DNA of 64,000 bases from a phage. Location of the stretch: the sequence record OZ336093.1; one strand, written 5' to 3'. This document shows positions 6,958 to 63,556 of this stretch, piece by piece. The notes below the pieces were generated by a model. The model was not told the DNA's origin, did no database searches, and saw only the letters and a list, made by a program, of their open reading frames with translations. Numbering within the stretch: position 1 is the stretch's first letter; each line of letters opens with the position of its first letter. The translations under genes were made by a program, and so were the position numbers.

Positions 6958-9657
6958 TTAGTGAACCTCAAGCCAGCTTTTACCAACCTTACCAGTACCT
7001 ATAACAAGTGTTTCTTTCTTAAGACCTAAGTTTTTAGAAGCTTGTCCATAATACCAGTCAGTAACTGCTTTCACTTCTGCCGTCATACTTTCTGGACATT
7101 CCCAACTTGTTTCATCGTGATATGCGCAGAGCAAACGAGCACCAATAGCTGGTTGACGACCATTCAACTTCATCAAACCTTCGTCAATCATACGACGACA
7201 AGCAAGGTTAATTGCCTCATTTTGAATCTGAGCCTCTGAACCCATCAAAAGATAGTTCAACAGTTTGTGTGGAGATTTACACCACAACCAAGCTCCAGCA
7301 ACCTTTACAAAACCCCCTTTAGAGATTGCAGCAGTCTTACCAAACACCTCTTCAAGTGCCTTCTTAGTTGCTTTGTAGTCAGCTTCCAAGTTATCTAGCA
7401 ACTTCTTAATTTTAGGCAAACGCACAAAGTAAGTCTGTTTAGTTAATGCACCTTCCTGAGTAGTGGCTGCCTTAATAGTTTTAGCAAACTTTTCATCACC
7501 TGCACCGAACAGTAGTGCATAGATACCATTCTTAGCTTTCTTACGACCTTTGCTAATCTCATGAAGAAGATTCTCATCCTGAGTAGCTCGACAAGTCAAG
7601 ATATCCTGCTCATCATTCAAGCTAAAGTAAATACTGTTCAGTGTATGTGCATCAGTCCCTGAATAGACAACGTACAGGTCATTCTCAGAGTCATAGCGAA
7701 GGTACTTATCAATCTCTGGGTTTAGGTACTCATCAAAATGTTTGCAGTAATAGCGTCCATCTTCTTGACGAATAAACTCAATCTCTTCTTTACCTTGCGT
7801 TACCGCTTTGGTGAAGTCTTTGTCACCCATAAAGTTACAAAGGAGAACTAGCTGAGCTGAGTTCATGTCTACAGAGACAACATTAGTACCTTCTTCACAA
7901 ATCCACACTGCCCTCATTGGTTCCCCATAGACGGCAGCACCAGACGGTACGTTTACAATACCATATTGTGTCATACGTCCAGTTGAAGTACCAAATACCA
8001 TTGCACCAGCACTAAGGCGACCATCAGGACGAATCTGGTTCAACCAACCTTTTTCATCATCCTTTGAGTTCTCAATAGTTCTGCGTCTGTGCATCAAAGT
8101 GTAGTACTTAGCAATCTTCTGTCCAAGCTCACCTTCAATCGTATCATAAGATGATTCAGTAAGTTTTGGTGAAGTACGGATTAAGCAAGGCTCAAGCAAA
8201 TCTGTGTATTTCTTCACAGACCAGTTATGCTCAATGTACTGTACACCTTCATGCTCAACATAGCTCAAACCACACCGCTCAATCATTTCCTGCCACTTAG
8301 GATGTTTTGTAATCATCTTTTTATTGTCTTTGAAACGACAAACTTTGACAGGGCGACCATCTGAGTCTTTCTTGTAGTTCCAGTCATCTGGAATCCAACC
8401 AACTGATTTCAAGTAGTCTTTAACAACTGCTACCTGAGTCATACGAGAAACTTCAAACTCAATTGGTGTATATGGTGCATCAATCAAACCTGTGTAGCGA
8501 CTTGACTCAAGTTCAAAGTGGTTAACAACGTGACTGTTATAGTACTTCACAGTTTTGACTGTTTTTACTGGCTTCCAGTCTTTGCATTTCTTGCCAATCT
8601 TTGCATTCAACTCATTGCAAATTGCACGAGCATCCTTCATTGCTACAAAACCTTCCTTGTACTCTTCACCAGTTACAGAGTTGGTTGGTGTATAGCAATT
8701 TCTCTTTTCAATGTTGAAAATCTTTGTAGTTGGCTTACCAAATGGCTTGATTTCATATGTCTGCATCTCACCGTTACGTACCTGCTGACGATACTTTGTC
8801 TTAGGGTACTTGGTAATTCTCTTCAGTCCATCTGCATGACCGAATGTTTCAACATACTCATTCCAAGCTTTTGCAAACTCTTCTCCAGTGACTTTACCTT
8901 TGGTCTTAATAGTTGGAGGTAGATGTGGTTCAACCTCTGAAGCAAGTTCATTAGTCAATTTGTCAAGCTCCTTTACATGGAACTCCATAAGCTCCTTATC
9001 AGCTTTCCAACCATTGATAGCTTGTTGGCTCATCCAGAAAGATGTCTCTTTAGCTCGCATGTAAGTTTCATAAGTGTCTATACCACACTTCTTAAGCTTG
9101 AGATACTCGTTATCAAGTGCCCGTTTAGTTTTGGCGTTAATACGGATATCTTCTACAACACGAGTGAAGATTTCTGCATTCCATACACCCCAATGCTCAA
9201 TCTCTGGTTTACGAACACCAACACGAGCACCCCATGCAGCCAAACCATGAGCACCTTTATAACCCTTTGGAGTTGGTCTATCCATCCACTGAACACGAGA
9301 CTGAATAAGAGAATCCTGAAAGAAATTACTCCACGGCTTACATTTTGGATTATCAAAGTTCCATAAATCCGGTGCAATGTGATTGAAGACCCACCAGTCA
9401 TAACCGAGGCCGTTATGGATACAAAGTCGTTTTGCCTTTAACGCAAACTCAACACCTTCACGTAAACCACCCTTAATGTACTTAGTGTACTTGTGACCGA
9501 GGATAGGCTCATCTGTAAAGACCCATACAGGTGGCTCTTCATCGTCAGATTTATAGTCTGCAAAGGCCATTACGTGAACTTTAGTGAACTCAAGGAGTAA
9601 ACCATCAGTTTCTGTATCACCAACCAAATGTAAGTTTTTAAAATCTACGTTTTCCAT
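6958..9657 (-). CDS. DNA polymerase, family A (PolI-like) with 3'-5' exonuclease domain
   Basis: Exo I motif VGDTETDG near N-terminus; motif A-like VDMNSAQLVLL, motif B-like LLFGAGDEKFAK, motif C YHDE; start at Met with AGAGGGAG RBS. Confidence 0.85.
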   Translation of the reverse strand: MENVDFKNLHLVGDTETDGLLLEFTKVHVMAFADYKSDDEEPPVWVFTDEPILGHKYTKYIKGGLREGVEFALKAKRLCIHNGLGYDWWVFNHIAPDLWNFDNPKCKPWSNFFQDSLIQSRVQWMDRPTPKGYKGAHGLAAWGARVGVRKPEIEHWGVWNAEIFTRVVEDIRINAKTKRALDNEYLKLKKCGIDTYETYMRAKETSFWMSQQAINGWKADKELMEFHVKELDKLTNELASEVEPHLPPTIKTKGKVTGEEFAKAWNEYVETFGHADGLKRITKYPKTKYRQQVRNGEMQTYEIKPFGKPTTKIFNIEKRNCYTPTNSVTGEEYKEGFVAMKDARAICNELNAKIGKKCKDWKPVKTVKTVKYYNSHVVNHFELESSRYTGLIDAPYTPIEFEVSRMTQVAVVKDYLKSVGWIPDDWNYKKDSDGRPVKVCRFKDNKKMITKHPKWQEMIERCGLSYVEHEGVQYIEHNWSVKKYTDLLEPCLIRTSPKLTESSYDTIEGELGQKIAKYYTLMHRRRTIENSKDDEKGWLNQIRPDGRLSAGAMVFGTSTGRMTQYGIVNVPSGAAVYGEPMRAVWICEEGTNVVSVDMNSAQLVLLCNFMGDKDFTKAVTQGKEEIEFIRQEDGRYYCKHFDEYLNPEIDKYLRYDSENDLYVVYSGTDAHTLNSIYFSLNDEQDILTCRATQDENLLHEISKGRKKAKNGIYALLFGAGDEKFAKTIKAATTQEGALTKQTYFVRLPKIKKLLDNLEADYKATKKALEEVFGKTAAISKGGFVKVAGAWLWCKSPHKLLNYLLMGSEAQIQNEAINLACRRMIDEGLMKLNGRQPAIGARLLCAYHDETSWECPESMTAEVKAVTDWYYGQASKNLGLKKETLVIGTGKVGKSWLEVH

Positions 9658-46152: not shown

Positions 46153-46401
46153 ATGTCAACTATCCGCGTAACTGTTAATGCTTATGGCTGCCACGAACTT
46201 GATGCAAAATTCGATATCGGTGGAACAAATAACACCTTTGACCTTATCAAAATGCTGATTCAGCAGGTGCTACCAGATTATAACCCTACCGATGACTTTT
46301 GGAAGGACGCTGTAAAAGAAGCCATAAACGAGGAATATCACTACCACTACTGGGGAGAAAAAATTGTCTCCCTGTACTACAACAAGCAAGATTATAACTA
46401 A
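46153..46401 (+). CDS. hypothetical protein (ORFan cassette gene)
   Basis: 82 aa; last gene of plus-strand block. Confidence 0.45.
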   Translation: MSTIRVTVNAYGCHELDAKFDIGGTNNTFDLIKMLIQQVLPDYNPTDDFWKDAVKEAINEEYHYHYWGEKIVSLYYNKQDYN

Positions 46402-46439
46402 TCGACGCAGCGGGGCTATTTAGCCCCAGATACCTTGAC

Positions 46440-46465
46440 AGCCCCTATTTAAAGGGGCTTTTTTA
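46440..46465 (+). terminator. rho-independent terminator ending the plus-strand block
   Basis: GCCCCT-ATTTAA-AGGGGC followed by TTTTTT. Confidence 0.7.
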
Positions 46466-47098
46466 CGTCTATCCAATCCTTATACAATCCCTTTCCTTTC
46501 CTTTCCAGAATCTTACTAGACCTTAAAAGCAATAACTCTATAGTCTACTCTATAACCTCTTATCAAATCAACTTAAATAAAAGCCAATAACCCCAGAAAG
46601 GGGATGGCCCATTTAAACGCTCTATAAAGCTCTATAACATCCTTATCAACCTAACTTAAGGGATTGCATTAACTCACCCTAAAAAGCCCTTTATAAAGCT
46701 TCCTAGAGACTTAAAAGAATCTTATAAGGGTGTAAGCTTTATCGTCTCGTTAGTATTCTTGTGAATAACTAAACAACCCCTTGATAGTCACTAAAAAGTA
46801 TGTTATAGGGGCTATAAAGTAGCTTAAAAGTTGCTTAAAAGTTACGTAAATGCTAGCCCCCTTAACATTTTCTTAACAATTTCTTAACAATCCCTACATA
46901 GTTATGCTTGTTAGAGACTTGTTAGCCCCTTGTTAAATCTCTGTTAAGACCACGTAAAAACCTTGTAAGAGTCTTTGACATAGCCTTAAAAGCTCCTGTA
47001 AAGCCCTATAAAGAGCTATCCATACAGTTGAGGGGTAGATACTAGGAAGAGGCTTAAAAGAACTTATAAGGGGCTATAGAGAGCTTTTAAGAGGCATG

Positions 47099-48061
47099 TT
47101 TAGAGAATCACTAAGAGAGAAAGGGAACGATAAGAAAAGAGATAGTGACCATGTTAATAGCTTGTTAAAAAGATTAAACACTTGTTAGGAACTTGTTAAT
47201 TATCCCTACAAAATAACTCTTTAAAATTAACTTGTTAGCTCTTGTTAGTCATCTGTTAAGATTCTGTAAAGTCTATGTATCAACTGTTAAGAAACTGTTA
47301 CATCCCTGTTAGTTCTGTTAAGAGTCTATTAAGACCTTTGAAGAGTTGTTAAGAGCTTGAGAGAGTTGTTAAGAGATTGTTAAGGATATTTTAAAATTTT
47401 GCAAAGTACTTGTAAGGGAGTTGTTAAGGGTTACCAAGCAGATATACATCCTCAACAGATATTTTTGAGTTCCTTCAAAGACCCTAAAAAATGACTTGAT
47501 AGCCCTATTTTATAAAAATTTTAAAATTCTGAATAATTACCTAGACAGTCTTTTAAAAATACAGGCATAAACAGGCTTATTTAGAGAATCACTAAGAGAG
47601 AAAGGGAACGATAAGAAAAGAGATAGTGACCATGTTAATAGCTTGTTAAAAAGATTAAACACTTGTTAGGAACTTGTTAATTATCCCTACAAAATAACTC
47701 TTTAAAATTAACTTGTTAGCTCTTGTTAGTCATCTGTTAAGATTCTGTAAAGTCTATGTATCAACTGTTAAGAAACTGTTACATCCCTGTTAGTTCTGTT
47801 AAGAGTCTATTAAGACCTTTGAAGAGTTGTTAAGAGCTTGAGAGAGTTGTTAAGAGATTGTTAAGGATATTTTAAAATTTTGCAAAGTACTTGTAAGGGA
47901 GTTGTTAAGGGTTACCAAGCAGATATACATCCTCAACAGATATTTTTGAGTTCCTTCAAAGACCCTAAAAAATGACTTGATAGCCCTATTTTATAAAAAT
48001 TTTAAAATTCTGAATAATTACCTAGACAGTCTTTTAAAAATACAGGCATAAACAGGCTTAT
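47099..48061. repeat. perfect tandem duplication, 2 x 481 bp, non-coding
   Basis: unit TTTAGAGAATCACTAAGAGAG...AACAGGCTTAT at 47099-47580 repeats at 47580-48061, identical as far as I can read; dense in CTGTTAAG/TTGTTAG motifs. Confidence 0.85.
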
Positions 48062-48504
48062 AAGATACCTTGTTAGTACCGTGTTAGACCTTGTGAGATA
48101 AGGTCTGTAAAGATATTCCTGTTAAGTTTGTTAAAACAGTCTATATAGAGGCTTAGTAGCTCCTAGTGAACACCTATAGAGGGTATCATAGCTGACATAG
48201 AGATTAAGAGGTGTATAGGAGCTTCTAAGAGGGTGTAGAGAGATGGTTAAGGTGATTGTATAGGTTGTTAAGAAGGCTTGTTAGAGGGCTTGTTAGAAGG
48301 GTTATACAGAGGGGCTATTAAGACCACTAGATAGTTACTAAGACACTATATAGTACTATATAACTATATAGAGAGTAAGATTAAGAAGGTTGTTAAGAAG
48401 GATAGATATTTTATTCACATATGATGGTGACCCAGAGGTTGGGACAACCGATAAAATTTTATAAAAATTAAAAAGCCCCCGATTAAGGAGGCTCTTAAGA
48501 TATT

Positions 48505-49098
48505 TTAAATCAGTGTTTCCAGAACTGTTTTCAGGGATGACTTAGTTGTCTGATAAAAATGAGTGAATCCGTTGTTGTTATCGAATATCTGCATCATAAT
48601 ATCATCTCCCTTGATTGGATACACTCGGATATCATAGTGAAACCCGTTAAAGACAGCAGAACCATTACAGAACACACTAAAATCGTCCACTGAGATATAC
48701 TCTTCATGTCCTGTGATTTTTATACAGACGCCTTTGCTCGGTCTCTTAGGGTTGATATCTTCCATCACAGACATACTCTGTCCACCAAGAGATACCATAG
48801 TGACCACTTTACGGTTCTTCTGTCTAAAGTACATTTTAACTTTCTGTAAAGTGTCTTCATAGAACGGATAAGACTTCTCTACAAAGATTCCTTCAAGTGG
48901 CTCTTTACCATTTTCAACTTCTCTGGTATGTCGTACTGCAAAGATAATTTGTTGGAACCAGTCAAGATTTTCTTCGGAGAGTGCTTCACGAACATCACTC
49001 CAGTCAAGGACTAGGTAGTTGCCTTCAACTTCTTTTAAGTTATCTTTTTCCATACCTATCACACCGTTATCGTAAAACTTGGTAAGCTGGTACTGCAA
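48505..49098 (-). CDS. hypothetical protein
   Basis: 197 aa ORF; start may be at the internal Met. Confidence 0.5.
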   Translation of the reverse strand: MQYQLTKFYDNGVIGMEKDNLKEVEGNYLVLDWSDVREALSEENLDWFQQIIFAVRHTREVENGKEPLEGIFVEKSYPFYEDTLQKVKMYFRQKNRKVVTMVSLGGQSMSVMEDINPKRPSKGVCIKITGHEEYISVDDFSVFCNGSAVFNGFHYDIRVYPIKGDDIMMQIFDNNNGFTHFYQTTKSSLKTVLETLI

Positions 49099-58410: not shown

Positions 58411-58487
58411 CTCTGTTTAGCTCAGCTTGGTAGAGCGTTCCGTTTGGGGCGGTAAGGCCGGAGGTTCAAGTCCTCCAACAGAGACCA
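58411..58487 (+). tRNA. tRNA-Pro (anticodon TGG)
   Basis: hand-folded cloverleaf, 7 bp acceptor, T-arm GGAGG-TTCAAGT-CCTCC, CCA encoded. Confidence 0.7.
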
Positions 58488-58494
58488 AATTAAT

Positions 58495-58572
58495 GTTCCA
58501 GTAGACAAAATGGTAAAGTCACCACTCTTTCAAAGTGGATATCTGAGGGTTCAAATCCCTTCTGGAACGCCA
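58495..58572 (+). tRNA. tRNA-Glu (anticodon TTC)
   Basis: acceptor GTTCCAG/CTGGAAC, anticodon loop CTTTCAA, CCA encoded. Confidence 0.7.
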
Positions 58573-58579
58573 GTTTTGA

Positions 58580-58655
58580 CAGAAGACCAATTACAGCAAA
58601 CTTAATCTTATTCATCTGAAGGTAAATCGGACAAAGAAGAGATTTGGTCTGGTCA
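58580..58655 (+). ncRNA. structured RNA element, copy 1 (5' AGAAGACCAA / 3' TTGGTCTGG closing stem)
   Basis: conserved 5' block CAGAAGACCnnTTACAGCAA and 3' block GGTCTGG; stem covaries between copies. Confidence 0.5.
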
Positions 58656-58663
58656 TTAAGAAT

Positions 58664-58740
58664 TGCGGGTATAGAGAAAGGGCGTCTCACATGTCTCATT
58701 AGCATGGTATCGGCAGGTTCGACTCCTGCACCCGCCTCCA
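58664..58740 (+). tRNA. tRNA with anticodon CAT (Met or Ile2), irregular fold
   Basis: T-arm GCAGG-TTCGACT-CCTGC and CCA present; acceptor/D-arm register ambiguous. Confidence 0.5.
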
Positions 58741-58746
58741 AATTTG

Positions 58747-58808
58747 CAGAAGACCGTATTCAGCAACAAAATACTTTTTGCGGATAAAAGAAAAAACACG
58801 GTCTGGCA
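58747..58808 (+). ncRNA. structured RNA element, copy 2 (5' AGACCGT / 3' ACGGTCT stem)
   Basis: same conserved blocks as copy 1 with compensatory stem changes. Confidence 0.5.
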
Positions 58809-58817
58809 ATGTATTAA

Positions 58818-58894
58818 GGTTAGGAAGCACATAAGGTATGTGCGGTCGCCTGTTAAGCGAATGGCACAGGGTTCGAATCCCTGACTAACCGCCA
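58818..58894 (+). tRNA. tRNA-Asn (anticodon GTT)
   Basis: acceptor GGTTAGG/ACTAACC, loop CTGTTAA, CCA encoded. Confidence 0.7.
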
Positions 58895-58903
58895 AATTTA
58901 AAT

Positions 58904-58991
58904 GTGTCGTTATCCCGTAGATGGTAGCGGTGGGGACTGTAAATCCCTTGTCATTGAGACTCGGTAGGTTCGACTCCTACACGGCACACCA
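58904..58991 (+). tRNA. tRNA-Tyr (anticodon GTA), long variable arm
   Basis: loop CTGTAAA, long variable arm, T-arm GTAGG-TTCGACT-CCTAC, CCA encoded. Confidence 0.7.
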
Positions 58992-58996
58992 ATAAA

Positions 58997-59074
58997 GGTT
59001 ATGTAGTTTAATTTGGTTAAAATGCTCCCCTGTCACGGGAGATGATGAGGGTTCAAATCCCTTCGTAACCGCCA
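58997..59074 (+). tRNA. tRNA-Asp (anticodon GTC)
   Basis: stem CTCCC/GGGAG around loop CTGTCAC, CCA encoded. Confidence 0.7.
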
Positions 59075-59135
59075 ATTTTGAGAGGGCTATTTAGCCCCTC
59101 CCTTAAAGGGTTCTTACGAGTATCCTTTAAAGGGG

Positions 59136-59211
59136 CAGAAGACCAAATACAGCAAGAATGTATGAAATTTCAAGCCAATTTAATTTTGAAAATTTAAAAC
59201 TTGGTCTGGCT
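59136..59211 (+). ncRNA. structured RNA element, copy 3 (5' AGACCAA / 3' TTGGTCT stem)
   Basis: conserved CAGAAGACCAAATACAGCAA and TTGGTCTGG. Confidence 0.5.
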
Positions 59212-59222
59212 CAACAAATTTA

Positions 59223-59356
59223 CAGAAGACCGTTTACAGCAAAACTTAAACAATCTATTTCTCCGGTAAAGAAAAGGCGAAGGTTCGATTCCTTCACTCG
59301 GCAGATGTCGAGTTGGTGTAATGGTAGCACTTAAGATGATAAACAACGGTCTGGTA
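59223..59356 (+). ncRNA. structured RNA element, copy 4, with internal tRNA-like module
   Basis: closing stem AGACCGTT/AACGGTCT; interior carries T-arm-like GAAGG-TTCGATT-CCTTC and D-arm-like GTTGGTGTAATGGTAGCAC but no complete tRNA. Confidence 0.5.
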
Positions 59357-59503
59357 ATTATCTTTGTAGATAAGTTATTAAGCTTACCTGTGAGTATGCG
59401 ACCACAAAGGGTGAAAGGGTAAATTCTAGATTTAAACCCAACAAGGCACATCGCTACAGACCTTAAGCAAGTCTGGGTAGCTTATCTACAAAGATAATTT
59501 AAT

Positions 59504-59579
59504 GGAAGTGTAGCAGAATGGTGATGCGGCAGACTTTTAATCTGACAGGCGATGGGTTCGAATCCCTCCACTTCTACCA
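59504..59579 (+). tRNA. tRNA-Lys (anticodon TTT)
   Basis: loop CTTTTAA, T-stem with one bulged T, CCA encoded. Confidence 0.6.
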
Positions 59580-59583
59580 ATAT

Positions 59584-59660
59584 GGTTCAGTCGCAGATAA
59601 GGTAATGCAAGGGTCTCATAAGCCCTATGAATGTGGGTTCGATTCCCATCTGAACCTCCA
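59584..59660 (+). tRNA. tRNA-Met (anticodon CAT)
   Basis: loop CTCATAA flanked by GGG/CCC stem, acceptor GGTTCAG/CTGAACC, CCA encoded. Confidence 0.7.
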
Positions 59661-59661
59661 A

Positions 59662-59738
59662 GCTGGTATAGTTAAGAAGGTTATAACACTCCCCTGATAA
59701 GGGAACATCGGTGGTTCGATTCCACCTACCAGTACCAA
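59662..59738 (+). tRNA. tRNA-Ile (anticodon GAT)
   Basis: loop CTGATAA, T-arm GGTGG-TTCGATT-CCACC, CCA encoded. Confidence 0.65.
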
Positions 59739-59753
59739 TTTCAATAAAGTTGT

Positions 59754-59782
59754 TGACATTGAGATGTGACTACTTTATAGTA
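59754..59782 (+). promoter_or_regulatory. sigma70-like promoter TTGACA-N17-TATAGT inside the tRNA array
   Basis: consensus -35 with 17 bp spacer and TATAGT -10; followed by about 200 nt with no tRNA. Confidence 0.6.
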
Positions 59783-59983
59783 ACCTTAGTTTTCGTTGCG
59801 TAGCGTCTATTTTGCAAATTTAAAATAAATGCAAACGACAATGTTTTTCTGGCAGTAGCTTGATAGGCTAAACACCAGCGAGGTCTTCCAATCCCTCATC
59901 AAAGAATTTGGCGTACTAGCCCACGGTATGATTAATAAGGTGGGCATCTTTAAGGGCTTTCTAAGAGAGTCTTTAAAGATTAA

Positions 59984-60060
59984 TGCACCCTTAGTTCAAT
60001 TGGATAGAGCAACGGTCTTCTAAATCGTTAGTTACAGGTTCGAATCCTGTAGGGTGTGCC
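59984..60060 (+). tRNA. tRNA-Arg (anticodon TCT)
   Basis: loop CTTCTAA, T-arm ACAGG-TTCGAAT-CCTGT, CCA encoded. Confidence 0.7.
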
Positions 60061-60203
60061 AATTAGTTAGCAGATTACTTAGACGACCTAAGCGGGTCTT
60101 CCTGTAGGGAGGTGGTCTGTATCTCATGTTTTCCAGAACATGTAAATAATCTGAGAAGGGGCTTTACAGTGTTGAGATAATACGGTAAGCTTCGAATTAT
60201 AGT

Positions 60204-60286
60204 ATGGGACGATGTTAAGACTCTAAGGCATGAGCAACGGCCTCCAAAACCGTTTCAAAGGGGTTCAAATCCTCCGTCCCATGCCA
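60204..60286 (+). tRNA. tRNA-Trp-like (anticodon CCA), irregular
   Basis: anticodon arm resembles E. coli tRNA-Trp (CTCCAAA loop); about 7 extra nt between acceptor and D-stem. Confidence 0.45.
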
Positions 60287-60299
60287 AAGTCTTATTAGG

Positions 60300-60387
60300 G
60301 GTAGGTAGCGGCTAATGGCAGCCAAACAGTCTTGAAAACTGTTGCCACTGTAGAGATACGGTGAGGGTTCGACTCCTTTACTTACCG
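60300..60387 (+). tRNA. tRNA-Ser (anticodon TGA), long variable arm
   Basis: loop CTTGAAA, long variable arm; CCA not encoded. Confidence 0.65.
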
Positions 60388-60544
60388 CCTAATAAGATTT
60401 AAAGCCAAGCTTCATTCGGATGTTGCTTTGGTATACCGCGTGTATTGTTGTACGCACTGATAAAGCACCTAGTAGGTGTCACGGAGAAGAGATAATATCA
60501 AGCTCTCCAAAGGTTCTAGTCACCGGATTAAACAAGACTATGCA

Positions 60545-60568
60545 AAGACCTTTTTAGGTCTTTTTAGA
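60545..60568 (+). terminator. hairpin terminator within tRNA array
   Basis: AAGACCT-TTTT-AGGTCTT followed by TTTT. Confidence 0.5.
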
Positions 60569-60645
60569 GGGCTTCTAAGGTTATTACAGCTTGTTGTGGA
60601 ACCTTGTTGCTTAGGTTCTTAGAAGTTCTCTAAAAAGATTTAATG

Positions 60646-60723
60646 GGAGATTGACGGTAATTGGTAAACCTACCATCCTTAGAAGTTGGTGTTTGAGGGT
60701 TCGAATCCCTTGTCTCCTACCAA
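60646..60723 (+). tRNA. tRNA with anticodon TAG (nominally Leu) on a short-variable-arm scaffold
   Basis: loop CTTAGAA, acceptor GGGAGAT/GTCTCCT, CCA encoded; weak D-stem. Confidence 0.5.
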
Positions 60724-60730
60724 ATTAATG

Positions 60731-60806
60731 CAGGTGTAGCAAAATGGTTATGCGGCTGACTCTTAATCAGTAAGACGATGGGTTCAATTCCCTCCACCTG
60801 TACCAG
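60731..60806 (+). tRNA. tRNA-Lys (anticodon CTT)
   Basis: loop CTCTTAA; paralogous to the TTT copy incl. bulged T-stem; CCA encoded. Confidence 0.6.
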
Positions 60807-60812
60807 ACATTG

Positions 60813-60888
60813 GGGATGTAGTTTACATGGTTAAAACATAAGTTTTGCAAACTTAAGTACAGGGTTCAATTCCCTGCTTCTCCACCAA
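60813..60888 (+). tRNA. tRNA-Ala (anticodon TGC)
   Basis: D-stem GTTT/AAAC, loop TTTGCAA, T-arm CAGGG-TTCAATT-CCCTG, CCA encoded. Confidence 0.7.
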
Positions 60889-60894
60889 TTAGTG

Positions 60895-60969
60895 CATCCA
60901 TAGTTTAAACGGGAAAATTACAGTCTTCCAAACTGAGGTTGAGGGTTCGATTCCCTCTGGATGCTCCAA
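60895..60969 (+). tRNA. tRNA-Gly (anticodon TCC)
   Basis: loop CTTCCAA, acceptor GCATCCA/TGGATGC, CCA encoded. Confidence 0.65.
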
Positions 60970-60976
60970 ATTAATG

Positions 60977-61053
60977 CTGCTTTCGTATAATTGGCTATTA
61001 CACATCCCTTGTAAGGATGGAAATGCGGGTTCGAGTCCTGTGAGCAGCACCAA
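60977..61053 (+). tRNA. tRNA-Thr (anticodon TGT)
   Basis: stem CATCC/GGATG around loop CTTGTAA, CCA encoded. Confidence 0.7.
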
Positions 61054-61055
61054 TT

Positions 61056-61147
61056 CAGAGGTCAAGTGAAAGACCGCTGGTGTCAACTGAAGACCGTAAC
61101 AAATTCCACGGAGTTGAGTTAGCGGCACAACTTCAGACCTCTTTCAC
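61056..61147 (+). ncRNA. possible small structured RNA between tRNA-Thr and tRNA-Val
   Basis: about 90 nt with internal complementarity (AGTGAAAGA recurs; GAGGTC pairs with GACCTC) and no tRNA fold. Confidence 0.3.
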
Positions 61148-61222
61148 ACTCGCTTAGTTTATATGGTAAAACATCACCCTTACAAGATGAAGAAAAAGGT
61201 TCAAGTCCTTTAGTGAGTACCA
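61148..61222 (+). tRNA. tRNA-Val (anticodon TAC)
   Basis: loop CTTACAA, T-arm AAAGG-TTCAAGT-CCTTT, CCA encoded. Confidence 0.65.
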
Positions 61223-61223
61223 T

Positions 61224-61301
61224 GTTCCAGTATCCCAATTGGCAGAGGATGCAAGCTCAAACCTTGTATTAGTGACGGTTCGAATCCGTCTTGGAACACC
61301 A
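61224..61301 (+). tRNA. tRNA with anticodon CAA (nominally Leu) on a short-variable-arm scaffold
   Basis: stem GCAAG/CTTGT around loop CTCAAAC, T-arm GACGG-TTCGAAT-CCGTC, CCA encoded. Confidence 0.55.
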
Positions 61302-61306
61302 ATTTT

Positions 61307-61382
61307 GCAGGATTAGTTCAAATGGATAGAGCAACAGTCTACGAAGCTGTTAATAGGGGTTCGAATCCCTTATCCTGCGCCA
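61307..61382 (+). tRNA. tRNA-Arg (anticodon ACG)
   Basis: loop CTACGAA, D-arm GTTC..GAGC, CCA encoded. Confidence 0.7.
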
Positions 61383-61399
61383 GATAAAAAGGTGATACT

Positions 61400-61642
61400 A
61401 TGCAAACATTAACAGTAGTTGAACATGAAAACTGTGAGAATATTGAGTTTGTCAGGGTCATTGGTGTTGAACACCACATTTTCTTAAAAGTAGGGTACTT
61501 ATGTGACCCCGCTAGAGTAGAAAGATTTATACGTGATTGTTTTGGTGGTAGACAGCTAAAGAGTGTTATTTTTGAGACAGTTTTACCAGAAGGTTTAGAA
61601 ACGAATAATAACATTTATCTCCTTACAAGGATTAGACGATGA
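61400..61642 (+). CDS. hypothetical protein embedded in tRNA array
   Basis: 80 aa ORF starting 18 nt after tRNA-Arg. Confidence 0.35.
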   Translation: MQTLTVVEHENCENIEFVRVIGVEHHIFLKVGYLCDPARVERFIRDCFGGRQLKSVIFETVLPEGLETNNNIYLLTRIRR

Positions 61643-62196
61643 GATATTTAAAATATGCTTCATGGATTTTCCTAGCTTTGCTAGAACCATTAGCAGCAAC
61701 CTTAGCAGTTATCTTAGCACCTTTCGTAGTTCCATTTTACAGTGAGAAGAAAGGCCACTTACCTTTCGGATTTAGATGGATGGAGACATATGACAACCCA
61801 ATTGATGGTGACGAAGGTCATATCGAACGATGGGCTAAGATTAGAAAGATTGGTAAGCTGGGTGTCTACATGCAGAGAGTCGGATGGCTCTGGAGAAACA
61901 AAGCTTATAACTTCTCTTACCATGTATTAGGAAGAGATGTAAAAGATGTTACTAAGTGGAAAGGTAATATCAACGTAAGTTCTGACCCTGAAGATAATCA
62001 GACAGGTTATCTCCTAATGTGGAACAGTAATGCTTGGGGATTATTCGCTTTTATCCCATCAATTAAAGTCTTTGGTAAACAGTTTTACTGGAGAATTTAT
62101 ATTGGATGGAAACTAAAAAGTGTTGTCCCAGAAGAAAGAGCATTCTCAAGGGAAAGAGTTATGTTGGCATTCTTTATTCATCCACTGAGAAAGTAA
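61639..62196 (+). CDS. hypothetical membrane protein embedded in tRNA array
   Basis: 185 aa, N-terminal TM segment, Trp-rich. Confidence 0.45.
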   Translation: MRYLKYASWIFLALLEPLAATLAVILAPFVVPFYSEKKGHLPFGFRWMETYDNPIDGDEGHIERWAKIRKIGKLGVYMQRVGWLWRNKAYNFSYHVLGRDVKDVTKWKGNINVSSDPEDNQTGYLLMWNSNAWGLFAFIPSIKVFGKQFYWRIYIGWKLKSVVPEERAFSRERVMLAFFIHPLRK

Positions 62197-62204
62197 AGAT
62201 TTAA

Positions 62205-62280
62205 AGGGGATTAGTTTACAAGGTTAAAACCTCGGTCTTTGAAATCGAAGAAGTTGGTTCAATTCCAACATCCCCCGCCA
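62205..62280 (+). tRNA. tRNA-Gln (anticodon TTG)
   Basis: loop CTTTGAA, weak 1-72 pair as typical for tRNA-Gln, CCA encoded. Confidence 0.65.
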
Positions 62281-62282
62281 AT

Positions 62283-62361
62283 ACTCCATTACTCCAATTG
62301 GCAGAGAGGCCAGACTTAAAATCTGTGTTATGTATCGGTTCGAATCCGATATGGAGTACCA
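62283..62361 (+). tRNA. tRNA with anticodon TAA (nominally Leu) on a short-variable-arm scaffold
   Basis: loop CTTAAAA, T-arm ATCGG-TTCGAAT-CCGAT, about 7 nt variable loop, CCA encoded. Confidence 0.55.
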
Positions 62362-62366
62362 AATTT

Positions 62367-62442
62367 AGCGGTATAGCATAACTGGCAATGCAACAGTCTC
62401 TGAAGCTGTCCTATTAAGGTTCAAATCTTTATGCCGCTGCCA
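62367..62442 (+). tRNA. tRNA-Gln (anticodon CTG)
   Basis: loop CTCTGAA, D-stem GCAT/ATGC, CCA encoded. Confidence 0.6.
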
Positions 62443-62471
62443 CTTCTAAGGGTTCTTACGAGAGTCCTTAA

Positions 62472-62547
62472 ATGTGGCCTTATCATAAATGGTAATGACC
62501 CATGCTGTGAACATGGTCTATACGGGTTCAAATCCCGTAGGTCACCC
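62472..62547 (+). tRNA. tRNA-His (anticodon GTG)
   Basis: loop CTGTGAA, discriminator C, CCA encoded. Confidence 0.65.
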
Positions 62548-62553
62548 CAATTT

Positions 62554-62629
62554 ATAGTCCAAGTAGCTTATATGGTTAAAGCGCGTGTCTGAAAAACATG
62601 AGAAGAGGGTTCAAATCCCACTGGACTAC
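62554..62629 (+). tRNA. tRNA-Phe-like (anticodon GAA), irregular
   Basis: loop CTGAAAA, D-stem GCTT/AAGC; acceptor and T-stem register off by one. Confidence 0.5.
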
Positions 62630-62647
62630 CAATTTCAAAGGTGCTTA

Positions 62648-63382
62648 ATGAAAGAGATGACAGAACAAGGTAAGGAGATTTTTAATCTCTTAAAAACCGG
62701 TAAAGGGTTTTCTAACCCACTTATTACTGGTGCAGCAGTTCTCGGTGGAACCGTAGCTGCTTCTACATCACTTGTAAGCTCTATTAGTTCTGTAACAGAC
62801 CCTACAATGCAGGAGAAACTTGTTGCTGCTGGACTTACAACAGTCCTTCTAAACAGCTTTACAACAAGCCTTACAAGCACTACAGCAACTACTAAGACCC
62901 TGACAGACTACGGTCAAAAATCTATTGATGAGTTTTCATCACGTATGCAGGTAGCAAAGGGATATTCCAATGTTATGGGTGCAGCAGGAGAACAAGTTGG
63001 TTGTACACCGTTCAGTGGTATTATGGGTGTTGCTACAGAATATGGTCAAAAAGCTATTGATACGATTAACAGTACACTAGAGAGTGTTAACAATGTATTA
63101 AGTGACTTACAAGACGCTATTGACAAGGGTCTTGATACTGTTTCTGATTTAGCTAACCAAGCTGTCAGTAAGATTAATGAAGGTATCTCAAAGATTACAG
63201 CTTATGCAGATGAAGTTGTGCAGATGATTGAAGAAGAAGCTGCCCTTATTGCAGAGTACCTTAAAACGAATATCAATGGGTTCTTAGCAGGTATCTTACC
63301 AGACTGGTTTGATGATGCCTGTAAAACTGGTGTAATTGACACTATTGCAACACCAGAAATGAAGAACGCATTACAGAAATAA
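62648..63382 (+). CDS. hypothetical Ser/Thr-rich protein embedded in tRNA array
   Basis: start moved to first ATG downstream of tRNA-Phe (track start 62585 overlaps the tRNA). Confidence 0.45.
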   Translation: MKEMTEQGKEIFNLLKTGKGFSNPLITGAAVLGGTVAASTSLVSSISSVTDPTMQEKLVAAGLTTVLLNSFTTSLTSTTATTKTLTDYGQKSIDEFSSRMQVAKGYSNVMGAAGEQVGCTPFSGIMGVATEYGQKAIDTINSTLESVNNVLSDLQDAIDKGLDTVSDLANQAVSKINEGISKITAYADEVVQMIEEEAALIAEYLKTNINGFLAGILPDWFDDACKTGVIDTIATPEMKNALQK

Positions 63383-63383
63383 T

Positions 63384-63476
63384 GGAAGATTAACCCTAAA
63401 AGGTAAGGGAGCAGTTTGCTAAACTGCCAGTAGCTGAGAAATCGGTGTACCAGTTCAAGTCTGGTATCTTCCTCCA
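63384..63476 (+). tRNA. tRNA-Ser (anticodon GCT), long variable arm
   Basis: stem GCAGT/ACTGC around loop TTGCTAA, long variable arm, CCA encoded. Confidence 0.7.
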
Positions 63477-63480
63477 ATTT

Positions 63481-63556
63481 GAATCCGTGACAGAAATGGC
63501 TATGTGCCTGTCTGCAAAACAGGTTTATAAGGGTTCGAGTCCCTTCGGATTCTCCA
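63481..63556 (+). tRNA. tRNA-Cys (anticodon GCA)
   Basis: stem CCTGT/ACAGG around loop CTGCAAA, CCA encoded. Confidence 0.7.

Follow-up and report, generated by a model that had tools for sequence, protein, structure and literature searches.

Phased short repeats are known at the terminal-repeat junction of phage T7, where the arrays are said to have been called SRL and SRR by Dunn and Studier in 1983. In phages lambda and SPP1, several short phased elements likewise lie by the cut site (the R sites of cosB in lambda, and pacL and pacR in SPP1), and an oligomeric DNA-binding subunit assembles on them. Phages of the Felix O1 type are used in diagnostics, biocontrol and therapy for Salmonella and E. 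coli, and Bas63 is an engineering chassis. Short direct terminal repeats (DTRs) have been known in the Felix O1 group since 2010-2016 (PMC4837284). The DTR literature that we searched gives repeat length, not motif architecture, and the cis-acting packaging signals of these phages are undescribed beyond that length. Here we analyse a gene-free region at positions 46402-48504 of sequence record OZ336093.1, taken from a stretch of 64,000 nucleotides that is referred to throughout as the window. We conclude that this region is a concatemer junction whose phased motif arrays are probable assembly sites for the packaging or end-cutting machinery, a reading to which we assign a probability of about 0.6.

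By its sequence, the stretch is a Felix O1-type myovirus of the genus Felixounavirus and is new at the species level, with 92-95% nucleotide identity to its best relatives. These relatives are lytic phages (PMC8303462). In total, 256 records matched the region, 203 of which covered at least 80% of it. The conservation figures for the DTR and its motif rest on an alignment of the window with ten relatives (11 sequences), including two Mooglevirus at about 75% identity, and the features that we describe are collected in Table 1.

Homology to mapped genome ends

In Pr103Blw, E9, ZX4221, UAB_Phi87 and UAB_69, the homologue of the junction is 88-93% identical and has the same convergent neighbour genes, and every annotated relative has a gene-free block flanked by convergent genes of unknown function. 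For several of these phages the ends of the genome have been mapped or can be read from the record. For Pr103Blw, PhageTerm called a short direct terminal repeat of 581 bp, which the record carries at each end (PMC8303462), and the E9 and ZX4221 records carry exact terminal repeats of 580 and 591 bp. Positions 46856-47435 of the window align to the repeat of Pr103Blw and likewise to those of E9 and ZX4221. In all three phages, which come from three laboratories, the left boundary of the repeat reads ..AAATGCTA/GCCCCCTTAACA.. and the right boundary ..GTTAAGGGCTACC/AAGCAGATATACATC.., where the slash marks the end; in E9 and ZX4221, the bases next to the cut are GCTA/GCCCCC on the left and GGGCTACC/AAGCAG on the right. 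Several further records also terminate at this right boundary.

In the window, neither boundary sequence is disrupted: the left one (..TTACGTAAATGCTA/GCCCCCTTAACA..) is present once, at 46855/46856, and the right one twice. In the alignment, the columns flanking the left boundary hardly vary, the exceptions being a few substitutions in both Mooglevirus sequences, and the block around the right cut site is invariant.

In UAB_Phi87, Bal31 digestion followed by run-off sequencing located the ends experimentally; the DTR came to 608 bp, and the end fragments for SpeI were reported as 4322 and 2819 bp (PMC4837284). When the conserved boundaries are placed on the UAB_Phi87 record (JN225449), the repeat is predicted to be 614 bp long and the SpeI fragments 4435 and 2747 bp. 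The predicted and published fragments agree within about 3%, which places the ends in the region but not at base resolution. The genome length given in the paper, 87,669 bp, differs from the 87,603 bp of the record (PMC4837284).

Collectively, homology to the ends of these relatives puts the predicted ends of this isolate within the region, which is very probably the terminal-repeat junction of the phage. The original prediction had offered an origin, a centromere-like site or a packaging signal for the region. Of these, a packaging signal is the only option with positive support, because the homologous region in the relatives holds the mapped ends of virion DNA, with a DTR of 580-591 bp. A partition centromere of the parS type is not supported: no partition genes were recognisable among the flanking proteins, and the relatives are lytic. 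The origin is weighed below.

Near the expected left genome end, one IMG/VR contig (IMGVR_UViG_3300045988_004931) ends in a perfect direct repeat of 83 bp with an offset of 91 bp, which occupies the first 174 bases of the oriented segment and is probably an assembly effect of the terminal repeat.

Phased arrays of a short motif

The region was first singled out in part for a motif, (C/T)TGTTA(A/G), that seemed to recur dozens of times at intervals of about 10-11 bp, and counting bears out both parts of this description. Within the region, the + strand holds 37 copies of YTGTTAR (17.6/kb) and the - strand two, compared with 28 + strand copies in the remaining 61.9 kb (0.45/kb), an enrichment of about 39-fold. 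The second copy of a 481-bp tandem duplication, described below, accounts for 13 of the 37 copies, leaving 24 in a single-copy version of the region. In that version, exactly 11 bp separates adjacent TGTTA cores in 10 of 27 cases, and 15 of the 27 spacings fall between 9 and 13 bp (random mean 3.2; 0 of 20,000 random trials reached 15). Pairwise distances between cores cluster at 11, 20-22, 31 and 42 bp. Phasing holds locally, over two to four sites at a time, and not in one long register; spacings in the main arrays, for example, are 11, 20, 11, 39, 10, 11, 31, 11, 11, 9, 31, 20, 11 and 44 bp. Outside the region, 97 sites include a single phased same-strand pair, and the arrays are thus confined to this locus.

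The consensus over 31 sites is c-T-TGTTA-A/G-G-a, an element of 8-9 bp (cTTGTTAAGa) with variants of the form CTNWWAAG. Such variants make up the 8-mers of the left flank (CTTAAAAG, CTATAAAG and CTTATAAG), which are partly spaced 10-11 bp apart; CTTAAAAG reaches 2.85/kb in the region versus 0.24/kb elsewhere.

The motif is conserved beyond its surroundings. In the alignment with ten relatives, motif-core columns are 97% conserved compared with 85.5% for the other columns of the DTR (Mann-Whitney p = 5e-9), and in the main arrays the cores are again 97% conserved versus 84% for non-core columns. Differences in length among the relatives amount to whole 11-bp units at 46908-46948 and whole 12-bp units (TTAGAGGGCTTG) at 48265-48300, a pattern that indicates slippage-type change in the copy number of the short repeats. 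One core has been lost in the isolate: positions 47326-47333 read CTATTAAG, whereas all ten aligned relatives read CTGTTAAG, and the loss is repeated in the second 481-bp unit at 47807.

Conserved cores, drifting spacers, strand polarity, phasing at about one helical turn and confinement to a single locus all fit the earlier suggestion that these are arrays of sites for an oligomerising protein, binding of which we infer from this pattern.

Direct repeats in helical phase could also be the iterons of a replication origin, at which an initiator opens an adjacent A+T-rich tract, the genome ends being merely nearby or the two functions overlapping. A tract of 34 bp with 94% A+T does lie 70 bp from the arrays, and two of the five relaxed DnaA boxes (TTWTNCACA) in the window, for which shuffled sequence predicts 11, lie on either side of the DTR, inverted relative to each other; in phage E9, the right-hand box is a perfect TTATCCACA. 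We nevertheless regard an origin as improbable. Boxes at these positions were present in roughly half of the Felixounavirus loci that we checked and in none of Mooglevirus or Kolesnikvirus; we therefore rejected them as a conserved feature, as they are not kept beyond part of the genus. The repeats, at 7-9 bp, are shorter than classical iterons of 17-22 bp. No initiator-like gene was recognisable in the flanks, where nine proteins had no Pfam match and hit only PHROGs of unknown function, and the phage encodes its own replication enzymes. The site also lies where two transcription units converge. GC skew was considered as an origin marker and set aside, as its sign changes at about 46850, where the motif also reverses its polarity and the gene blocks converge.

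The same boxes bear on a role in DNA entry or end protection, in which the arrays would act as a pause signal during injection or would bind a protein that shields or synapses the ends. In T5, a large untranslated, repeat-rich part of the terminal repeat is the injection stop signal and carries DnaA boxes (bioRxiv 10.1101/866236). The present locus resembles it in being a repeat-rich non-coding block at a terminal repeat with two DnaA-like boxes. The T5 repeat, however, is about 10 kb long with genes and has as its hallmark eight DnaA boxes in a fixed order, whereas here a gene-free repeat of 580 bp is accompanied by two relaxed boxes, both outside the DTR and not conserved across the subfamily; in this respect the region is unlike an injection stop of the T5 type. 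The genes beside both ends point towards the ends, so there is no first-entered block transcribed inward as in T5. Nor are we aware of any report that Felix O1-type phages inject their DNA in two steps. Entry or end protection is accordingly a still weaker candidate than an origin, and one that we think has little chance of being correct.

Repeat edges and a right-end signature

At both edges of the DTR, TGTTAAGGG is directed at the cut, 5 nt away on the left and 7 nt away on the right. This arrangement arises because only the first three copies of the motif are reversed and all later copies have the opposite orientation. The edges of the repeat are, in other words, related by an approximate two-fold symmetry.

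The right end has a further signature, TTTGCAAAG-N33-AGATATACA; here AGATATACA starts 4 nt beyond the predicted cut. It is identical in Felixounavirus and Mooglevirus, and Kolesnikvirus keeps it with the same 33-nt gap. A scan of IMG/VR that allowed gaps of 32-34 nt returned 21 Ounavirinae-type matches, or 19 contigs after discounting two duplicated copies in stored phage records; the signature was found once in each, always with a gap of 33 nt. Within at most 600 bp upstream, these matches had 8-21 TGTTA cores on the same strand, compared with 0-1 for chance matches.

Kolesnikvirus, which comprises phages of Erwinia and Hafnia, has only a weak nucleotide match of 70-80 bp to the window. Its DTRs of 438-439 bp lie in the same convergent, gene-free setting and contain TGTTAA runs spaced 11, 11, 9, 40, 20 and 11 bp apart, the pattern (11/11/9/../20/11) of the main arrays of the window, with a left end that reads /GCCACTTTTACATTTCGTTAACAA and a right end that carries the same TTTGCAAAG-N33-AGATATACA.

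In several relatives we also observed a 22-bp palindromic insert, AATTGGTATTGTTACCAATCCC, at varying positions in the junction (Table 1). In ZX4221 the insert is found in the left flank and in UAB_Phi87 within the DTR; one IMG/VR contig has two copies at a distance of 104 bp, and the window has none. In this it resembles a small element that is mobile or becomes inserted repeatedly.

A 481-bp tandem duplication

The window contains, as originally predicted, a perfect tandem duplication of 481 bp (47099-47579 and 47580-48060). Identity at an offset of 481 is unbroken for 482 positions (47099-47580), and Tandem Repeats Finder (TRF) reports a period of 481 with 2.0 copies at 47092-48061. Upstream of the two unit starts, the sequences have no more than AGGC.T.T in common (6 of 8 positions). 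Through the duplication, the main arrays, the right-end signature with its cut site and the A+T tract are all present twice; the left end and left cut remain single.

Comparison of copy number across related phages, as had been proposed, found one unit in the relatives, whose homologous region is 1604-1716 bp long (40 records listed among the relatives). No comparable duplication was present in the 203 GenBank records, the ten aligned relatives or the 19 IMG/VR contigs, and the duplication junction had no exact match in IMG/VR or in Joint Genome Institute (JGI) metagenome contigs. The duplication is private to this sequence. Of the two origins first suggested for its perfect identity, a recent event agrees with its absence from all relatives, and homogenisation is not needed.

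Perfect identity and uniqueness fit a very recent event and an artefact equally well, and an error of assembly or of the record is the principal alternative; it would leave the remainder of the region unaffected. A circularly closed contig could have kept redundant ends of 481 bp and been re-opened elsewhere untrimmed, or the copy number of a loop in the assembly graph could have been wrongly resolved. In keeping with such an error, 481 bp is about the length of one long or merged read, and records of the genus are often opened or broken here (RPN213 at the equivalent of 47513/47514 in the window and PHB11 at 47217/47218), so that contig ends tend to fall in the region. On the other side, the junction ..GGCTTA/TTTAGAG.. 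is a new adjacency, which an assembler can write only if the reads contain it, and neither of the two records checked (RPN213 and PHB11) had retained a terminal overlap. The unit also differs from the DTR in length (481 versus 580 bp) and boundaries, which argues against simple head-to-tail joining. Genomes of the genus range from 83 to 92 kb, and an extra 0.5 kb should therefore be packageable. On balance, the duplication is probably real, and an artefact is the less likely of the two but a live alternative.

Other accounts of the duplication were considered and rejected. A head-to-tail join of two terminal repeats would not give a unit of 481 bp in place of 580 bp, with boundaries 243 bp inside and 144 bp beyond the ends. 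A shifted terminal repeat of 481 bp in this isolate is unlikely, as both canonical boundaries are intact and the boundaries of the unit resemble neither. Typing phage 15 of E. coli O157 (KP869113) was examined as a second case and rejected: this 'partial genome' record has local overlaps of 75-77 bp with gaps of about 100 bp, which look like unmerged contig joins. RPN213 and PHB11 were rejected as duplications too, since these records are opened inside the region and have no terminal overlap.

If the duplication is real, right ends could form at 47435, at 47916 or at both, giving a terminal repeat of 580 or 1061 bp. For the present, it is chiefly a quality flag on the sequence; a real duplication would make the isolate a natural variant that has its right-end cut site twice.

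Gene content and transcription

The region had been described as free of open reading frames (ORFs) of at least 60 aa and as lying between convergent gene blocks, and both descriptions hold. The longest ORF wholly inside it is 41 aa and crosses the duplication junction; + strand ORFs stop at 46401 and - strand ORFs at 48505. Each gene block ends in an intrinsic terminator. On the left, the terminator scan places the element at 46440-46459, followed by a T run; the fold of 46402-46470 has an energy of -27.2 kcal/mol (z = -4.1), and the double hairpin is kept in 10 of 10 aligned relatives. Because both gene blocks run towards the junction and end at terminators, the junction is probably transcriptionally quiet.

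That the region encodes small proteins or a non-coding RNA, with the repeats incidental, is very improbable. ORFs of 25-55 aa have been annotated here by some in relatives, and nucleotide conservation of the region is about gene-like. The ORF at 47096-47188, however, is broken by one-base indels among relatives, and that at 47399-47494 straddles the genome end. An Rfam search of the region found no family above chance, with one sub-threshold chance match, and comparison of its folding with that of shuffled sequence yielded nothing significant except the terminators, so that we rejected hidden genes and RNAs. Promoters were rejected as well: the best sigma-70-like matches in the region scored 9/12, none of them convincing, and are by-products of the motif, which itself resembles TTGACA.

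BPS17S6 (MG646671) lacks the two small genes that close the + strand block before the region, and in this relative a 24-bp insertion lies between two CAGATAT repeats just beyond the right genome end. Elsewhere in the window, 26 tRNA genes are clustered on the + strand at 58411-63556; a tRNA cluster is usual in Felix O1-type phages.

Table 1 Features of the junction region (positions in the window unless a relative is named; a slash marks a cut or join)
Feature	Position	Strand	Detail or basis
Double-hairpin intrinsic terminator closing the + strand gene block	46412-46465	+	Terminator scan, fold, conservation
Left junction flank, adjoining the right genome end	46466-46855	+	C-rich (GC skew to -0.30)
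Relaxed DnaA boxes, both outside the DTR	46760-46768; 48411-48419	-; +	
Predicted left genome end	46855/46856		..AAATGCTA/GCCCCCTTAACA..
Predicted DTR, 580 bp	46856-47435	+	Homology to mapped DTRs of relatives
Three reverse motif copies at the left DTR edge	46860-46891	-	CTTAACA x3, 11 bp apart
Four CTTGTTAR sites	46908-46948	+	Exact 11-bp steps
Duplicated unit, copy 1	47099-47579	+	Right 337 bp of the DTR plus 144 bp beyond
Main DTR arrays	47151-47430	+	16 TGTTA cores
Right-end signature, copy 1	47398-47448	+	TTTGCAAAG-N33-AGATATACA; predicted cut 47435/47436
Predicted right genome end	47435/47436		..GTTAAGGGTTACC/AAGCAGATATACA..
A+T tract, 34 bp	47506-47539		94% A+T; 70 bp outside the right end
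Duplicated unit, copy 2	47580-48060	+	Identical to copy 1; novel junction ..AACAGGCTTA/TTTAGAGAATC..
Right-end signature, copy 2	47879-47929	+	Second potential cut 47916/47917
Right junction flank, adjoining the left genome end	48061-48470	+	G-rich (skew to +0.40)
Further TGTTAR sites in the right flank	48070-48135	+	
12-bp array in the right flank	48265-48300	+	TTGTTAGARGGC
Repeats in the right flank	48336-48371	+	CTATATAG
Intrinsic terminator closing the - strand gene block	48471-48496	-	Terminator scan
22-bp palindromic insert in relatives	L009 1145-1166; L017 (UAB_Phi87) 7356-7377; L080 853-874 and 957-978; also L010, L076, L079, L085		AATTGGTATTGTTACCAATCCC

Discussion

By analogy with T7 and with the terminase recognition arrays of lambda and SPP1, we infer how such a junction would work. 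Genomes replicated head to tail would be cut to unit lengths at the junction. A packaging or end-processing protein, either a putative recognition subunit of the terminase or the terminase itself, would bind the phased motifs cooperatively on one face of the helix and direct cleavage at the symmetric edges, which lie 580 bp from each other. In the process the repeat would be copied, so that each packaged genome would carry a DTR at both ends, as has been proposed for T7. Taken by itself, the step from arrays to function, that is, that they serve packaging or end cutting, appears to us about evenly balanced. The fullest version of the model goes further: the arrays, the two TGTTAAGGG-N5-7 cut sites and TTTGCAAAG-N33-AGATATACA would together be an Ounavirinae-wide packaging signal, read by a putative recognition protein, and the duplication a real variant with two functional right cuts and repeats of 580 or 1061 bp. 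That whole combination is doubtful.

Several points weigh against a role in packaging or leave it incomplete. The large terminase is the only one identified in the Felix O1 group, and no small subunit has been identified there (PMC4837284). The motif family reaches several hundred bp beyond the DTR on both sides, and not all copies need therefore serve cutting. The A+T-rich tract beside the arrays also fits an origin. The cut sites bear no relation to the boundaries of the duplication (47099 and 47580), so that its origin is not explained by a packaging model, and the duplication may be an artefact. To our knowledge, the function of the analogous repeats of T7 is itself not firmly established.

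Short DTRs in Felix O1-type phages and phased short repeats at the T7 terminal-repeat junction were already known; what appears to be undescribed in the literature that we searched is the motif architecture, the symmetric edges and the right-end signature shared across the subfamily. Recognising the 1.6-kb non-coding block as a junction shows annotators where to open these genomes and shows engineers which sequence to leave intact when rebooting or editing them. The junction is also a defined substrate for finding the missing recognition protein. If it is indeed a packaging signal and the duplication is real, the isolate would offer a ready-made test of how a terminal-repeat terminase picks and pairs its cut sites.

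Among described systems, origin iterons (lambda ori, P1 oriR and those of iteron plasmids) share phased direct repeats and an AT-rich tract with the window. The repeats of the window, by comparison, are much shorter and more numerous, have no recognisable initiator gene adjacent and coincide with mapped genome ends. The 'a' sequences of herpes simplex virus, a terminal direct repeat that holds cleavage and packaging signals and occurs in variable tandem copies, are a more distant lead; there the whole terminal repeat is reiterated, whereas the duplicated unit in the window is offset, starting 243 bp inside the DTR and ending 144 bp beyond it. Lambda and SPP1, for their part, make cohesive or headful ends, unlike the exact terminal repeats of the relatives of the window. 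Compared with the DTRs of other Felix O1-type phages, the window has the same boundaries at both ends of the repeat and is alone in having a 481-bp duplication that doubles the right one.

T7 has the same design. In and beside its 160-bp DTR, CCTAAAG occurs 13 times on one strand and 0 times on the other, often 13 bp apart, and our current view of phage packaging is unchanged because this design is known from T7. Common descent or a shared motif was rejected: the motifs (CCTAAAG versus TGTTAAG), the length of the DTR (160 versus 580 bp), the virus family and the terminase all differ, and the early genes of T7 are transcribed inward from the left end, whereas both flanks in the window are transcribed towards the junction. 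The likeness is one of design only: in both phages, a short exact DTR carries, inside and beside the repeat, a short motif on one strand in runs spaced by about one helical turn.

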